From IMG/VR virus record IMGVR_UViG_2690316343_000005: a DNA stretch of 7,007 nt; one strand, given 5' to 3'. The position numbers and the translations under genes are program-made. Below, piece by piece: positions 815-7,007 of the stretch (position 1 is the first letter of the stretch; each line of letters starts with the position of its first letter). This DNA comes from a virus (lineage: Duplodnaviria > Heunggongvirae > Uroviricota > Caudoviricetes). Below the pieces are notes generated by a model. It searched no databases and was not told the origin of the DNA. It worked only from the letters and a program-made list of their open reading frames with translations.

Positions 815-1873
815 TTATGCTTTCCACTTCAGAACACCCGAATTTCTCGCGTGCATTAAAAAACGAATCAGCAACAACAGCTGACTGCCGTGTTTCTCTT
901 CAAAATCTTTTACTCCGGCATGTAGTTCGTTACGGCATTTACGGCATAACGGAATAACAAACAAATCATCAGCCTTTGTTCCCATCCCTCCCAGTCCATG
1001 ACCAATGATGTGATGCGGATCATCTGCCTGATTGCCACACGTCATGCATTTCTGCGTTTTTACCCAGCGCGTGTATACAGGCATCTCTTCCCGTTGTGAT
1101 TTCTGGCGCTGGAGATACTGAGCCGGTGACTCCGGATCAACGGCAATGCTGACCACCGTCTTTTCCTGTGGTGGGTTCTGTTGCTGGTGGACGTGAGGCA
1201 GTAACGCAATATTTTTTGTGCGCTGCTTCAGTATGCTGGTGGCTGTCTGCTCTCCCGGTATGATGTCGCTTTCACTGTACACAGAGCGAATTTTTTCCGC
1301 ACGCAACCCCAGCGAACGACGTAATACCGCTTCCGGTAGCGCGTCCGCCACCTGATTGCGGACCGCCCACCAGGATAATTCAGCCAGAGATAATTCACGC
1401 TCCTGCGTACCGCTTATTGCGTGACCGATGACGTCAATCATCCATGCTGACAGGTTTTGATGAGCAAGTTGCTCGAGTGATTCGGATGTCTGGTCACGCA
1501 GCTGGTTGTCGCAGTGCCAGCACAACACCATTGCGCCGGTACCATAACGGTGAATGACGGTTTCGCTGTGATGATAATCGCCGTGTGGCCACTGGCAGGA
1601 TTTAATATGGCGCAACAGCCAGTCAGACAATGCACCAGCACCACCAGCAGCACGAATCACCCGTGCGTTACTGAAAAACGGCAGCAATGTTTTGTCTTCC
1701 ACCAGCGGCTGGCGAGCGGCAGGAACGACCCCGGACGGCAGATTACGCATGCTTTTTGGTTCCGGCTCCACCAGTATTCTGCCGTTATGGAATGCTGACA
1801 TTGATTCACGGCCTGGCTTAACGATAACCAGACCGAGTTCCGGTACCAGAACAGGTCGAAGTAATACCCGCAC
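815..1873 (-). CDS. DUF968-like (YdfU-like) prophage protein with C-terminal HNH-type Cys/His motif
   Basis: 352-aa ORF. C-terminus CMTCGNQADDPHHIIGHGLGG...LCRKCRNELH resembles an HNH/zinc-finger nuclease motif. A DUF968 gene sits between hok and Q in E. coli Qin prophage, as recalled. Start is GTG at 1873 preceded by GGAGGT; an alternative ATG lies at 1801. Confidence 0.65.
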   Translation of the reverse strand: MRVLLRPVLVPELGLVIVKPGRESMSAFHNGRILVEPEPKSMRNLPSGVVPAARQPLVEDKTLLPFFSNARVIRAAGGAGALSDWLLRHIKSCQWPHGDYHHSETVIHRYGTGAMVLCWHCDNQLRDQTSESLEQLAHQNLSAWMIDVIGHAISGTQERELSLAELSWWAVRNQVADALPEAVLRRSLGLRAEKIRSVYSESDIIPGEQTATSILKQRTKNIALLPHVHQQQNPPQEKTVVSIAVDPESPAQYLQRQKSQREEMPVYTRWVKTQKCMTCGNQADDPHHIIGHGLGGMGTKADDLFVIPLCRKCRNELHAGVKDFEEKHGSQLLLLIRFLMHARNSGVLKWKA

Positions 1874-1948
1874 ATTACCTCCAGATCCGTTGCTGGAATG
1901 TGCGGGACGGACGCGTTGGCCGTTCGGAGTAAGGGAGCCTGACGGAGA

Positions 1949-2230
1949 TTATCCAGTGACGGTAGTCGAGGCTAAGGGCTTTTTTAACCTCGCATCCGCG
2001 CCTGCGGTAACACTGAATGAGCCATTCGGCCTGTTCTTCAGTGCATGGGGGATGCTGGTACCAATCAGATTTAAATGCGTGAGAGCGCCGCCCGTGCCTG
2101 CTGGCAAAGACGGCTGAATTATCAGAATTGTGTAGTCTGGAAGGCAGTGGCTGACAATAGCGCCATTCTCAACGCGCACAGTATAGAGGCCATCTTCACT
2201 AAAAATTTCACGTAATTCTTCGATTTTCAT
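1949..2230 (-). CDS. Small hypothetical protein, copy 1 (MKIEELREIFSEDGLYTVRVENGAIVSHC...); shares first 29 codons with 2757..3044
   Basis: ATG at 2230..2228 preceded by GGAAGG 9 nt upstream. N-terminal 29 codons lie inside the 252-bp direct repeat; the C-terminal ~64 aa are unique. Confidence 0.4.
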   Translation of the reverse strand: MKIEELREIFSEDGLYTVRVENGAIVSHCLPDYTILIIQPSLPAGTGGALTHLNLIGTSIPHALKNRPNGSFSVTAGADARLKKPLASTTVTG

Positions 2231-2400
2231 CAACAGAATCCTTCCAGATAAATAGCACTCCCCTGTTCGGGGTCCATCCCTCTTCTCCCTGCGCGCTACT
2301 TAAGTATTTTTGATTCTATTCCGGCACCATCTAAAACTTCAAACGCGTTGAAAATAAAAACAAAAACCCGCCGAAACGCTGAGAGATCACAGCGATGGGC
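2149..2400. repeat. 252-bp direct repeat, copy 1 (hok-type terminator hairpin + promoter-like region + 5' end of small ORF); truncated by gap
   Basis: Aligns without indels to 2962..3213. Flanks are near-identical (gctgacaat...cttaagt and cccgccgaaacgctgagagatcacagcgatgggc); the central ~60 bp diverges. Confidence 0.8.
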
Positions 2401-2411: not shown

Positions 2412-2718
2412 ATTGCTCTGCGGCTTCGCTCAGAGCTGGCGTATGTTCCCGGCCTACTGATTCACACAGGTAATCAACGAAACCGGACACCAGTTTTCGT
2501 TCGCGAGGCGTGATCGCCCCACCGACCGGAGTCCAGTAATCGAAACCCAGTTGCAGGAGTTTGAAAAAACGCTTGTGGAATGCGTAGTTACACACACGCT
2601 TAAAGTCTGCGTGTATCCACTCACCTATTTTGATTTGATGCAGAAAATCGCAACTCTCCGGCGTCGCCGGGAGAAGTAATCCGGAAGAGGTTTGTTTGAC
2701 CAGTTGTATATGTGCCAT
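2412..2718 (-). CDS. Hypothetical protein, partial (C-terminus lost in gap): MAHIQLVKQTSSGLLLPATPESCDFLHQIKIGEWIHADFKRVCNYAFHKRFFKLL...
   Basis: ATG at 2718..2716 with GGAG 7 nt upstream. Open frame continues to the N-run at 2411. The ORF-track TTG extension to 2760 has no RBS. No family recognised. Confidence 0.5.
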
Positions 2719-2756
2719 CGGCTTTCTCCGGTGGCACGGTGTTACACAGCAGGAGT

Positions 2757-3044
2757 TCAATCCTGCTCAAGATTGTAGATGAGTTTATTCTTCAGCAAAA
2801 GCAGAAAACCAGCCTTAAAACCAATCTCTTTCAAAACCCGTAATGATGTGACAAATTCGTCCTCACGCAAAATAAAACCGTCCGTCAGAAGTCCATTACA
2901 AAAATAAAATAACACAGCACCGCTCTTCCTTTGTTGAGATTGCAAACATCTAATGCGGCAATGGCTGACAATCGCTCCATTCTCAACGCGCACAGCATAG
3001 AGGCCATTTTCACTAAAAATTTCACGCAATTCTTCGATTTTCAT
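2757..3044 (-). CDS. Small hypothetical protein, copy 2 (MKIEELREIFSENGLYAVRVENGAIVSHC...), divergent C-terminus
   Basis: 95-aa ORF beginning inside the second 252-bp repeat copy, with the same RBS context as copy 1. Sits just downstream of the hok terminator and a promoter-like TTGATT-N16-TAGAAT. Confidence 0.4.
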   Translation of the reverse strand: MKIEELREIFSENGLYAVRVENGAIVSHCRIRCLQSQQRKSGAVLFYFCNGLLTDGFILREDEFVTSLRVLKEIGFKAGFLLLLKNKLIYNLEQD

Positions 3045-3213
3045 CTTCAGAATCCTTCCAGATAAATAGCTCTCCCCTGTTCGGGGTCCATCCCTCTTCT
3101 CCCTGCGCGCTACTTAAGTGAGTCGATTCTATCTGCGAAGGTGCGCGAATCAAATTCACCGGAAATAAACAACAAAAAACCCGCCGAAACGCTGAGAGAT
3201 CACAGCGATGGGC
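2962..3213. repeat. 252-bp direct repeat, copy 2
   Basis: See copy 1; identical length with scattered substitutions. Confidence 0.8.
3126..3153 (-). promoter_or_regulatory. Putative sigma70 promoter for the small ORF (minus strand TTGATT-N16-TAGAAT)
   Basis: Minus-strand -35 TTGATT (plus 3148..3153) and -10 TAGAAT (plus 3126..3131), 16-nt spacer, immediately downstream of the hok terminator. Read by eye only. Confidence 0.3.
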
Positions 3214-3216
3214 GGG
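3165..3216 (-). terminator. Rho-independent terminator of the hok transcript
   Basis: Minus-strand CCCGCC-(25 nt with inner CGCTG/CAGCG stem)-GGCGGG followed by TTTTTTGTTGTT. The same hairpin recurs, truncated, at 2367..2400. Confidence 0.6.
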
Positions 3217-3220
3217 TTAA

Positions 3221-3285
3221 GTGCGGGTGCGTTGAGGATGCCTGACACATCAGAGGTGGGCGGGGATGGGATCAGCTCCCCGCCC
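3221..3285 (-). promoter_or_regulatory. hok mRNA 3' UTR structure: 8-bp GC stem-loop (3258..3285) plus fbi-like element (3221..3237) complementary to the 5' leader
   Basis: GGGCGGGG-12 nt-CCCCGCCC lies 9 nt after the hok stop. Plus-strand 3221..3237 gtgcgggtgcgttgagg is the reverse complement, with one bulge, of 3792..3807 cctcaagcacccgcag. Confidence 0.5.
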
Positions 3286-3293
3286 GGTCACTC

Positions 3294-3633
3294 TTACTTC
3301 CTGGATTCGTAGTCTACGAAGACAGCGACCTCCGTCTGGCCGGTTCGGATTCGTACCTCACAGAGGTCTTTCCTCGTTACCAGTGCCGTCACTATGACGG
3401 TNNNNNNNNNNNNNNNNNNNNNNNNNNNNNNNNNNNNNNNNNNNNNNNNNNNNNNNNNNNNNNNNNNNNNNNNNNNNNNNNNNNNNNNNNNNNNNNNNNN
3501 NNNNNNNNNNNNNCTCCGTCTGGCCGGTTCGAATTCGTACCTCGCAGAGGTCTTTCCTCGTTACCAGTGCCGTCACTATGACGGTTAAACAGATGACGAT
3601 CAGGGCGATTAACATCGCCTTTTGCTGCTTCAT
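3294..3633 (-). CDS. hok: Hok-family type I toxin (51 aa), split in this assembly by the N-gap and a 72-bp duplicated overlap
   Basis: ATG at 3633..3631 with AGGAG 9 nt upstream. Reads MKQQKAMLIALIVICLTVIVTALVTRKDLCEVRIRTGQTE (3514..3633), then gap, then ...EVAVFVDYESRK with stop at 3296..3294. Removing 112 N and the 72-bp duplicate gives exactly 156 nt. Near-identical to E. coli HokD/RelF as recalled. Confidence 0.85.
3402..3513. other. Assembly gap (112 N) flanked by a 72-bp near-identical overlap (3330..3401 vs 3514..3585)
   Basis: The flanks differ at two positions (G/A, A/G), both synonymous in hok. Confidence 0.95.
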
Positions 3634-3839
3634 AGCCTGCTTCTCCTTGCCTTTCGGCATGTAAGAGGCTAACCTACATGTGCAAAGCATGAAATTGGCC
3701 TCAGATTAATGTTAAGCGTCTTGCCGGACGCGTAATGTTAACTGGGGCTTTTCTCTATCTGCCTTTTGGTGTTCATGCCTGAAGCAGATAGCCTCAAGCA
3801 CCCGCAGTCATTCTACTTACCTCGCCAATATGAAATCAA
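3634..3839 (-). promoter_or_regulatory. hok promoter and long 5' leader (tac-like element; expected mok/sok region)
   Basis: Minus-strand -35 TTGATT (plus 3834..3839), 18-nt spacer, -10 TAGAAT (plus 3810..3815). The leader begins with GCGGGTGCTTGAGG, complementary to the 3' UTR element. The ~170-nt leader fits hok/sok-type loci. A sok promoter could not be pinpointed. Confidence 0.4.
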
Positions 3840-3860
3840 TCAGAAAGGTGCCCCATAAAA

Positions 3861-4547
3861 TCACTCCTTCTCTTCTTTACCGTAGTGGAGTTGACCAATT
3901 TTGATAAGAGGGCGTCCCTGAGATTTGCGGTGTAGATTGGTATCGCGCAGAGAATACACACAGCCACAATATTCCTGCTGATAGAATTTTTCGCGCTTGC
4001 TGATTTCAATCATACGGGACGAGCCGCCCTGCTTGCGCCAGTTATAATCCCAGTACACCATGCCCGGATAATGCGCGACGGCTCGCCGCCCACAGTCGTT
4101 AACCTGCTGCATATTTTTCCAGCGTGAAATGCCCAGTGAACTGCTGATCACACTGAAACCATTTTCAGCGGCGTACAGCGCTGTCCGCTCAAAACGCATG
4201 TCAAAACACATGGTGCAACGGATCCCTCGTTCGGGCTCCCATTCCATTCCTTTGGCTCGTTCAAACCAGTTGTCTGTGTCGTAATCAGCATCAATAAACG
4301 GCACGCCGTGTTGTTCAGCAAAGCGAATATTCTCATCCTTACGAATTAAATACTCTTTCTGAGGATGAATGTTCGGGTTGTAGAAAAAGATGGTGTAGTC
4401 GATTCCCGAGGCCTGAAGCGCCTCCATCACCTCACCGGAACATGGAGCACAGCAAGAGTGCAGTAGTAGTTTGTTTGCCCCGTTTGGGAGCTCCAATTTG
4501 GGCCGTTTGAAATCAGCAACTGTCATAAATATGTTTATTGGGGTCAT
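3861..4547 (-). CDS. queH: QueH-like epoxyqueuosine reductase homolog (DUF208 family, Fe-S enzyme)
   Basis: 228-aa ORF with [15 protein letters not shown] near the N-terminus plus conserved [19 protein letters not shown] and QEYCGCVYS motifs typical of DUF208/QueH. An alternative ATG lies at 4526; neither start has a clear RBS. Confidence 0.8.
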
Positions 4548-4694
4548 AAAAATATCAAAGAGTGTAGCATTAGAACGGGGCTATCGGAAACAGATGTGTG
4601 ACTGCTCCCCGCCCTTTCGGGTGGTCTCCTGATGATTTGAGGGTGCAGAAATCCCTCCGGTTAAGGATTAAATTTTTAACAGTGCTAAATTTAA

Positions 4695-5108
4695 TTATTC
4701 AGTTCTGGATTTTGTCGCCCTGCGTATCCGCGCTTTCGCGTTACGCTCAATCTGTATCAGCTTTTCTATATTTCTCCGCCTTTCCTGTTCCTCCTGGCGC
4801 AATAGCCTTACATCATCTGCCAGTCTGGTTTCTCTTTTTGCCACAGAGAGCATCCAGTCAAACGGCTCCACAACCGCACCGCAGATTTTACAGCGGACCT
4901 GACGCTCTTTTTCGTCAACCCGGACAGAGGCGTGATGGCAATATGGTCTTTCCGATGGCTCATAAAGAAAATTAACCTGATTACGAGGGTCATCCTCTTT
5001 TACCGGAAATAAAACGATATTGCTTAACTCATCTTCTGGTTTTATTTCCATGCTCCTCTCCTTTGATGCGAATGCCAGCGGTAATTGAAGCCTGATAGCT
5101 AATTTCAT
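4695..5108 (-). CDS. Hypothetical zinc-ribbon protein with basic coiled-coil C-terminus
   Basis: C-H-H...C-x2-C cluster (YCHHASVRVDEKERQVRCKICG) followed by a charged helical tail (RLLRQEEQERRRNIEKLIQIERNAKARIRR). ATG at 5108 abuts the upstream TGA (AGGAGG 11 nt upstream); an alternative ATG at 5051 has AGGAG 6 nt upstream. Confidence 0.6.
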   Translation of the reverse strand: MKLAIRLQLPLAFASKERSMEIKPEDELSNIVLFPVKEDDPRNQVNFLYEPSERPYCHHASVRVDEKERQVRCKICGAVVEPFDWMLSVAKRETRLADDVRLLRQEEQERRRNIEKLIQIERNAKARIRRATKSRTE

Positions 5109-5531
5109 TCACAGTATCGCCTCCTGAAAATTACCCTGATAGAAAGCCAGTACACGCTGCATAGCTTCGCTCTTCCGGCACTCGCGACAGATTATATTCA
5201 GGCGCCTGTCGTAGCGGCGTATTTCTCCGTCAGGTAATGACCAGATAAGGTCCGGATCAACAACAACCGGTTTCCTCACCTTTACTCTCGAGAGTTTTTT
5301 GCGGGCGCTTTGCCAGTCCTTGCGAGCCTGTTCAGACGGGAATAAGCCGTAGCCAGAATTATATACATCACCACTTGCGACCAGTTCTATGCATAAGCGA
5401 CCGACAGACGCACGACTGATACCTGTTTCATCTGACAACTGCCGAATCGTGACCCGACCGTCCTGATGCACGAGTTCCACAATTCGCGTCTTCAGTTCTT
5501 CCCGCTGTTCGGGAGTAAAAGGTTTCGCCAT
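5109..5531 (-). CDS. Winged-helix DNA-binding protein, possibly YdaW/DUF977-like, with C-terminal CxxC
   Basis: 140-aa ORF. N-terminal HTH-like segment (TIRQLSDETGISRASVGRLCIELVASG) and CRECRK near the C-terminus. AGGAGG lies 4 nt before the ATG. Its position after the DnaC-like gene mirrors ydaU-ydaV-ydaW in Rac prophage, as recalled. Confidence 0.65.
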   Translation of the reverse strand: MAKPFTPEQREELKTRIVELVHQDGRVTIRQLSDETGISRASVGRLCIELVASGDVYNSGYGLFPSEQARKDWQSARKKLSRVKVRKPVVVDPDLIWSLPDGEIRRYDRRLNIICRECRKSEAMQRVLAFYQGNFQEAIL

Positions 5532-5545
5532 AAATCCTCCTGAAA

Positions 5546-6292
5546 CTACTTAACAACCCTCGAATGGCTAACATTCGGACGCCAGCTCTCCCAGTTAAAA
5601 TTCACCCAGCGCCCGCCGTTCATGACCATGCGATCCATCACCCGCTCGCCGAGCAATGTTTTCATCACCTCATAGTTCAGGTTTGTCAGCATCCCCACGC
5701 TGCGCATCGACGCTGTCCGGCGATCAACAATCTGGTGCAGCACCACCTGCTCGTTTTTCGTCTCGCGCTGAATGCCAATTTCATCAAGAACCAGCAGATC
5801 CACTTCGCACAGCTCCCGCAAAAATTTTTCGCCTGACTGCCCGTCGTCATAGCTGGCGTGCAGGGCGCTCATAACATCAGCCACGGTAACCACAATCACT
5901 GTCTGACCGTCTTTCAGCAGGCGATTCCCGATAGCTGCCGCTAAGTGATTCTTCCCGGTACCAGGTTTTCCGCTGAACGCAAAATTTGTACACCCGGTCA
6001 TCAGTTCATCGGCGATGGATTTCGCCTGGCTTAACGCGTATCGCTGGCCGTCGTTCTGCACCTGGTAATTCGCAAACGAGCATTTACGGTGCAACGGCTG
6101 GATGCCTGAGCGATTCAGAATTTTTTCCACCCGCAACTGGCGATTCAGGCGGTTGATCTCCTCGCTACGTTTCTGGCCTTCAGCAAGTTGCCACTCGCGC
6201 CACTCCGCTACCGTTCTGAATGGGGCGGTTACATGTGGCGGGGTCAGTCGGCGGATGCGTTCCAGAACGCCGCCTGTCGCAATATTTTTCAT
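5546..6292 (-). CDS. DnaC-like replicative helicase loader (IstB-like AAA+ ATPase)
   Basis: 248 aa with Walker A FSGKPGTGKNHLAAAIGN and Walker B DLLVLDEIG. Collinear high similarity to E. coli DnaC as recalled (NRSGIQPLH, LGERVMDRM). Confidence 0.9.
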   Translation of the reverse strand: MKNIATGGVLERIRRLTPPHVTAPFRTVAEWREWQLAEGQKRSEEINRLNRQLRVEKILNRSGIQPLHRKCSFANYQVQNDGQRYALSQAKSIADELMTGCTNFAFSGKPGTGKNHLAAAIGNRLLKDGQTVIVVTVADVMSALHASYDDGQSGEKFLRELCEVDLLVLDEIGIQRETKNEQVVLHQIVDRRTASMRSVGMLTNLNYEVMKTLLGERVMDRMVMNGGRWVNFNWESWRPNVSHSRVVK

Positions 6293-6298
6293 GGTCCG

Positions 6299-7007
6299 TT
6301 ACCCCCTGAAGCCTGGCGGGATCGCACTGTCCGGCAACGAGACGGTGTTAACCTGTCGGAGCAACGTCTCAGGCCGAACACCTTTCGGCGCGAACAGGCC
6401 CTGGTATTCATTGGCGATGCTGTGTCGAATCACCTGCTCAGGTGTAAAACCCTGCTGACGGAATTTTTCCAGTTCCCGTATCGCCCCGTTAGCGCCCTGC
6501 TCCGTTCGAATCGGTTTTCGCAATGCCTGTCTGAACCGGACCCACTCATGCCAGAGTGTTTCCGGCAACCAATCGGGCAGCTCAATAGCCTCCGGCTCGA
6601 ATTTTTTAGACGCTCGTTTTTGGCGAGGGGGAGATCAGTATTTAGATCTTCCTCTTCCTCTTCCTCTGGTAACGCTTTTTGATCCGTTTGTGTAACGCTG
6701 GCAGCGTTACCTTTTCGTTTCAGTTCGCGTATTTTTGTTACTCGCTCGTTTGTAACCGCCCGTTTTTTTTAGAGCTTTTTCCGTTATGACGTTCAAAGTT
6801 AGGTAGAGAAAGCCCTCCGTCATTTTCGACCAGCCATCCAACCTGAATTAACGCATCAGCAAAACCAGACATAAAAGTGATGCGATCTATTGCACTTTTT
6901 GTAACGCCGCGAGCGTTACAATCTGCATTACCGTCTATCATTTGTTGATCCGCCCATGCCCAGAAGCGAATAACCTGAGGTAGCCTGAGTTTAACGGACA
7001 CTCCTTC
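6299..7007 (-). pseudogene. Replication initiator (YdaU/DUF1376-like, O-protein analogue) interrupted by two frameshifts at homopolymers; N-terminus may extend past the right edge
   Basis: Three consecutive open frames on the minus strand join into one protein if one A is added at the 8-nt run (plus 6773..6780) and one at the 6-nt run (plus 6602..6607): MSVKLRLPQV...GKSSKK|RAVTNERVTKIRELKRK...PEEEEEEDL...AKNERLK|FEPEAIELPDWLPETLWHEW...GFRG*. The stop is 6 nt before the DnaC-like ATG. Confidence 0.6.
6633..6770. repeat. Origin-like sequence cluster inside the replication gene: 3 GATC sites in 52 bp, (GAGGAA)x3, perfect 9-bp inverted repeat GTAACGCTG-g-CAGCGTTAC and related TTTGTAAC(C)GC motifs
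   Basis: GATC at 6633, 6645 and 6681; cttcct x3 at 6649..6667; inverted repeat at about 6691..6709; similar motifs near 6669 and 6755. Confidence 0.3.

Follow-up and report, generated by a model that had tools for sequence, protein, structure and literature searches.

The window analyzed here is a stretch of 7,007 nucleotides assembled from three contigs, A (1-2400), B (2412-3401), and C (3514-7007), which are separated by N runs at 2401-2411 (11 N) and 3402-3513 (112 N). On contig B, a minus-strand open reading frame (ORF) begins with an ATG at 2718-2716 and stays open down to 2412, where it runs into the 11-N run; as listed and translated, it comprises 102 codons plus 1 nt. A Shine-Dalgarno sequence, GGAGA at 2729-2725, lies 6 nt 5′ of the ATG (the minus strand reads ...ccaccGGAGAaagccgATGgca at this site). 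An earlier note on this DNA, which did not give the strand, had described an ORF of at least 102 codons with a good ribosome-binding site, and our examination bears out both features.

The earlier note had also called the ORF unrecognised. However, even the fragment can be assigned clearly to a known nin-region family, which is the outcome that the note itself had named as contradicting its reading. The 102-aa product matches the Pfam family DUF1367 (PF07105) at 158.9 bits (E = 1.7e−46), well above the gathering threshold of 25 bits, and it also matches PHROG 319 (9e−26). It is identical at 101 of 102 residues to WP_000940336.1, a “DUF1367 family protein” encoded by a prophage of Escherichia coli FDAARGOS_944 (L001), where the gene has 600 nt and encodes 199 aa. 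This full-length reference protein covers positions 1-198 of the 198 in the PF07105 model (E = 1.7e−96) and matches PHROG 319 at 2e−68, while the copy in the window extends over model positions 1-101 only. Judging by the strength of the Pfam match, the ORF is a real gene and not a chance ORF, and its membership in the DUF1367 family is, on sequence grounds, virtually certain. It represents codons 1-102 of the 199 codons of a DUF1367/IrsA-family gene, and the family is already known and annotated. In other searches, NCBIfam returned just one spurious sub-threshold match, to a leader peptide, and the PDB sequence search returned one chance match (E = 0.26).

Members of this family are widespread. 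An exhaustive profile search recovered approximately 2,380 DUF1367 representatives at 50% identity, and the gene is found in 1,324 of the 5,426 complete E. coli genomes (about a quarter). The two closest complete genomes, FDAARGOS_943 and FDAARGOS_944, carry two copies each. A 93%-identical homologue in the “Escherichia phage Rac” record (MN652886, L002) is named irsA, a name used in Salmonella and in this one Rac record, and homologues with approximately 55% identity are present in Gifsy-1/2, mEp237, and Aeromonas and Klebsiella phages. DUF1367 proteins come in two architectures, of approximately 197 to 203 aa and approximately 150 to 160 aa. The short form lacks residues ~65-112: short proteins (P0397 and about 40 other representatives) align with the profile over positions 1-64 and again from about 113 to 198, and the length of the PHROG 319 profile (159) is that of the short form.

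The copy in the window shares its ribosome-binding site and its upstream rem/hok neighbours with WP_000940336.1, Rac IrsA, and the Gifsy proteins, but it differs from them in having only the N-terminal 102 of 199 residues and in having a cysteine at position 43. The latter results from the single difference of the ORF from FDAARGOS_944, at base 2592, which changes codon 43 from Arg to Cys. C43 is common to the window and the Shigella sonnei copies of the gene, while R43 is nearly invariant in the family (Arg in at least 90% of a 72-sequence alignment), and the R43C change may be a sign of functional decay. In a non-significant alignment, R43 pairs with the invariant R41 of lambda Orf, at the start of a channel-lining helix.

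The gene directly upstream, at 2757-3044 on the minus strand, encodes a 95-aa Rem-family protein (ORF list; PF27490:Rem on S. sonnei contigs, “hypothetical protein” in FDAARGOS_944), and its stop codon lies 38 nt before the DUF1367 ATG. The stop codon is spanned by a perfect 6-bp hairpin (GCAGGA-TTGAAC-TCCTGC, 2749-2766, minus strand) that lies 30 nt before the same ATG. Because no T run follows it, the hairpin is not a classical terminator, and it may have a role in translation or RNA processing. Rem also precedes irsA in the Rac record. On the strand of the gene, the intact order is ydaU/ydaV-type replication genes, DUF977, a hypothetical gene, QueH, sok/hokD, rem, DUF1367, YbcO, and a DUF1133-type Q gene, and the rem-DUF1367-YbcO-Q part of this order is present in four of the reference sequences (L001, L002, L011, and L014). 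YbcO (DUF1364) is a putative nuclease. The stop codon of the DUF1367 gene overlaps the start codon of ybcO (TAATG), and translational coupling of the two genes is therefore implied. The QueH gene (3861-4547, minus strand), which encodes an epoxyqueuosine reductase (DUF208), is tRNA-modification cargo of the prophage. It is located between hok/sok and the replication genes and is conserved in both FDAARGOS_944 and the S. sonnei contigs.

The earlier note had placed the ORF in an accessory region and suggested a synteny survey. Such a survey points elsewhere: in mEp237, Gifsy-1, an Aeromonas phage, and Mannheimia phages, DUF1367 genes occupy the same slot of the nin module, after dinI and a small antirepressor gene and before YbcO/RusA/NinG and then Q, and the arrangement is not of the moron type. 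This slot, in the nin region of temperate phages and upstream of a junction nuclease and Q, is the position of ninB (orf) in lambda. The gene also has a ninR-type location, between the replication genes and Q and near Rap/RusA-type nucleases, which served as a criterion for the Orf family in Curtis et al. 2014 (PMC4118853). The Eru1 replication unit of Eru1-type Stx phages has the DUF1367 gene in third place, after the genes of a DEAD-box helicase and a Toprim protein (primase) (PMC8044961). We conclude that the DUF1367 gene has a conserved place in the replication-recombination (nin) module, between the antirepressor/hok region on one side and the junction nucleases and Q on the other.

Two genes upstream of the DUF1367 gene, the presence of a complete hok/sok type I toxin-antitoxin module is confirmed at the sequence level: the Rfam family “sok” (RF01794) is matched at 3628-3803 on the minus strand, in the hok leader (117 bits, E = 6e−27), and hokD lies at 3294-3630 on the same strand. 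As assembled, hokD is split artificially by the 112-N run. The flanks of this run, 3330-3401 and 3514-3585, are the same 72 nt with two mismatches (97% identity), contigs B and C overlap by these 72 nt both on the FDAARGOS_944 sequence and on the S. sonnei contigs L005 and L006, and merging the two contigs at the overlap yields an intact HokD identical to that of FDAARGOS_944. The N run at 3402-3513 inside hokD is spurious. Because the two mismatches (3532 and 3544, in contig C) agree with neither FDAARGOS_944 nor L005, they suggest that the end of contig C was built from a paralogous hok copy.

The position of the ORF between two repeat copies, which the earlier note had remarked on, holds for the window: segments 2143-2305 and 2351-2400 recur at 2957-3119 and 3164-3213 with 94% and 90% identity, respectively. 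It is not, however, a genomic arrangement but a product of scaffolding. The copy on contig B (2957-3213) consists of the 5′ end of rem, the region upstream of it, and the 3′ end of the hok mRNA, and the repeat search pairs it with the paralogue at 2143-2400 on contig A, which aligns to positions 5546-5802 of the FDAARGOS_944 sequence at 86%. The two copies are the rem/hok regions of two paralogous prophages that the scaffolder set in series.

Contig A carries Q, RusA, DUF968, a hypothetical gene, a rem remnant, and the 3′ end of hok, in an order that, in complete genomes, leads on to hokD. The final 38 nt of contig A recur without a mismatch in the hok-terminator region of contig B. The DUF968 (YdfU-like) gene at 815-1873 (minus strand; annotated as DUF968 in L003 and L004, PHROG 96 HNH endonuclease) is followed by RusA (434-814) and then by the antiterminator, and it occupies, in a paralogous prophage, the slot equivalent to that of DUF1367 (rem, then the gene in question, then a junction nuclease, then Q). 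Because DUF968 proteins have been described as an Orf-like N-domain joined to an HNH domain (Curtis et al. 2014, PMC4118853), the slot after rem is filled in the two prophage types by different candidate Orf-like genes.

In comparison to E. coli TUM10008 (L003), contig A has a net loss of approximately 156 nt, as 24 nt (2132-2155) stand in place of 180 nt of L003. A 92-aa hypothetical gene is thereby left without its start, and the initial ~25 codons of a rem-like gene run on into sequence that is out of frame. Because of this loss, we consider the 94-aa ORF at 1949-2233 (region 1875-2233, minus strand), for which a Pfam search gave no match, to be a chimera. At the other end of the window, the ydaU-like gene (about 6299-7007, minus strand) lacks, relative to FDAARGOS_944, 10 nt at 6625/6626, corresponding to one unit of the tandem duplication TTTAGGGGGA, and two additional T at 6763-6764 lengthen a T run from T6 to T8. 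These two frameshifting indels split a 262-aa YdaU-like replication initiator into ORFs 6299-6568 and 6738-7001, and the split gene reflects either a pseudogene in a decaying prophage or sequencing errors in a homopolymer and a repeat.

The earlier note had attributed the loss of the C terminus to the assembly, and the comparison with other genomes upholds this. Contig B aligns to FDAARGOS_944 to its last base (1 mismatch in 990 nt), and there the gene runs 97 codons beyond the end of the contig. Across all 990 nt of 2412-3401, S. sonnei contigs L005 and L006 agree with the window at every base; they read 137 nt past 2412 (codons 103-148) and also bridge the 112-N run. Because the gene continues in these identical contigs, the end at 2412 is the end of a contig, and we regard it as highly probable that the truncation is an assembly artefact. 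The “gap” of the earlier note does terminate the ORF, at the N run, but it is no short hole: at least 293 nt of the gene are absent from the window, and by comparison with the references and the S. sonnei contigs the 11 N are a scaffold join between contigs A and B, not a measured gap. The sequence to the left of the join belongs to a different prophage context. In a scan of 5,426 complete E. coli genomes, the sequences on either side of the 11-N run never occurred together within about 1.1 kb; contigs A and B are not neighbours, while the FDAARGOS_944 sequence is matched colinearly, at 99.6%, by contigs B and C. The gene would not be restored by closing the 11-nt gap, as the missing half lies on another contig and is followed by YbcO and Q. 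Contigs that begin at codon 103 and contain the remaining 97 codons, YbcO (DUF1364), and the DUF1133 Q antiterminator do exist, with the proviso that they were picked by exact protein identity, which partly accounts for their common start.

We propose that the source genome would carry several paralogous lambdoid prophage regions with near-identical stretches (rem/hok and DUF1367), at which short-read assemblies break, and that a scaffolder would then have joined three contigs by N runs, A from a Qin-like Q-RusA-DUF968-rem′ region and B and C from a Rac-like region. In S. sonnei, there are at least two DUF1367 alleles, and the protein cluster contains partial proteins of many lengths; those in draft genomes that begin with the exact 102 aa, including C43, are 148 aa (P0034) and 149 aa (P0121) long. 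Partial proteins of many lengths, together with multiple alleles or copies, are the usual signature of repeat-induced contig breaks. Overall, the locus is probably best explained as the 5′ half of a DUF1367/IrsA gene that belongs to the nin region of a lambdoid prophage of the Rac-like type and is cut by the end of a contig; the sequence derives almost certainly from a draft genome of S. sonnei.

As to the function of the family, DUF1367 may be related in fold to lambda Orf (NinB, PF05772, PDB 1PC6), a recombination mediator with affinity for single-stranded DNA (ssDNA) and SSB. Structure prediction, which the earlier note had suggested, gave a mixed picture. The AlphaFold2 model of a full-length member, built from the 72-sequence alignment, is of moderate quality (pLDDT 76.8, pTM 0.55). 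When the model was compared to viral models with Foldseek, NinB-named proteins were retrieved at ranks 4, 5, 6, and 45, with probabilities between 0.54 and 0.84 and low TM-scores for ranks 4 to 6, but the Foldseek search against the PDB gave nothing significant. Residues ~65-112 (approximately 48 residues) form a helical hairpin in the model, a feature of DUF1367 that distinguishes it from lambda Orf. Without the hairpin, the modeled protein consists of three helices, a beta-hairpin, and two helices, in an order and of a size like those of the 146-aa Orf.

At the level of sequence, in contrast, DUF1367 has no significant sequence or profile similarity to lambda Orf. Comparisons by hhalign with lambda Orf, with the NinB family alignment, under relaxed settings, and with the short forms were never significant (probabilities of 0.15 to 0.31%), and a Pfam scan of the protein and 72 members at E ≤ 10 gave no matches to NinB (PF05772), YbcN, or DUF968. 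Because hhalign was never significant, sequence homology between DUF1367 and Orf is not claimed, and motif resemblances are reported as observations only. These resemblances, seen in non-significant alignments under relaxed settings or with short forms, pair RN..FHKRFF with RSLDQNRKLW of Orf and KSI.F..M...EF with QSTS.M...EF; the Orf regions concerned line the central channel (Curtis et al. 2014, PMC4118853). The same survey of the Orf family, in which DUF1367 does not appear, offers in DUF968 and in YbcN of DLP12 a precedent for diverged Orf-like proteins that escape the Pfam NinB model, although DUF1367, unlike DUF968, is without an HNH domain and has no detectable sequence similarity to it. 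Lambda NinB and DUF1367 fall into different PHROGs, 72 and 319, and both are labelled “NinB/Orf.”

On balance, we lean toward an Orf-like fold for DUF1367. Its Orf/NinB-like core would consist of an N-terminal strand-helix-strand-helix, followed by a helix, a beta-hairpin, and two C-terminal helices, and would be interrupted by the ~48-residue helical insertion (residues ~65-112). Like lambda Orf, the protein would be an ssDNA- and SSB-binding mediator for the loading of RecA or of a phage annealase, acting together with the junction nuclease encoded next to it. We put forward this role as a recombination mediator tentatively, with the scales close to balanced, from family membership, genomic context, and a fold match in the grey zone. 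What the window preserves is only the N-terminal core with the greater part of the insertion, a fragment that would be non-functional alone.

We considered other explanations for both the truncation and the function. It is rather unlikely that the gene is truly truncated or disrupted in the source genome, for example by insertion of an insertion sequence (IS) or a rearrangement at codon 102/103, with a repeat hidden by the N run. Such a pseudogene would fit with S. sonnei as the likely source, given that Shigella genomes are rich in IS elements, with contigs that start exactly at codon 103, and with signs of prophage decay (R43C at a nearly invariant residue and the two indels in the ydaU-like gene relative to FDAARGOS_944). 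However, the S. sonnei contigs that are identical over 990 nt read through codon 103 to codon 148/149, neither contig end has non-homologous (IS-terminal) sequence, as both align to references to the last base, and the start at codon 103 is in part a look-up effect, with partial proteins of many other lengths also in existence. An IS insertion at codon 102/103 was set aside as the main explanation on account of the read-through and the lack of IS-end sequence.

For the function of the family, a role as a replication accessory factor (under the name Eru1C), acting with a phage initiator, helicase loader, or primase and not as a recombination mediator, is unlikely, if a little less so than disruption of the gene. 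The position of DUF1367 beside the DEAD-box helicase and Toprim protein in the Eru1 unit of Stx phages (PMC8044961) speaks for it, as does the location of the gene always downstream of O/P-like or YdaU/YdaV replication genes. Yet the Eru1C assignment was made by position, several unrelated genes (QueH, hok/sok, rem, and dinI) intervene in most contexts, DUF1367 lies immediately next to junction nuclease genes or is translationally coupled to them, and the structural matches are to NinB only. An accessory, moron-like function as a toxin, a phage-exclusion factor, or a host-fitness factor is more improbable still. The Salmonella irsA gene first drew attention through Tn10 insertions in it that reduce growth inside host cells (unpublished, cited in PMC3121763), and the gene in the window has a hok/sok toxin-antitoxin module in its vicinity, both of which would agree with such a function; but irsA deletions in the Gifsy prophages left prophage induction reporters unaffected (PMC3121763). 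Moreover, no family among the PADLOC-DB defence-system models matched either the fragment or the full-length protein at E ≤ 0.1, conservation of a nin-module slot across many phage genera is atypical of a moron, and both the coupling to a nuclease gene upstream of Q and the fold matches, which point to NinB, argue against it. The earlier note's candidate, an uncharacterised accessory function, is right insofar as the function of the family is experimentally uncharacterised, and the literature on DUF1367, irsA, STM1020, and STM2620 offers only positional mentions and the unpublished Tn10 phenotype on this question; the nin-module slot and the negative defence-library search do not agree with its accessory part.

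For the reading of this and similar assemblies, our analysis is a caution: what appeared as a novel truncated ORF between repeats reflects the scaffolding of contigs from paralogous prophages, and neither N run gives a true picture of the genome. The truncated copy adds nothing new by itself, and the conceptual gain is small given that PHROGs already labels the DUF1367 family NinB/Orf. We regard it as an even proposition that DUF1367/IrsA is a large branch of the Orf/NinB mediator fold, with about 2,400 representatives at 50% identity that include Orf-sized short forms and enterobacterial long forms. If this is true, a function would be assigned to a long-standing domain of unknown function and to Salmonella irsA, and many lambdoid prophages without a recognisable ninB would carry a recombination mediator after all.
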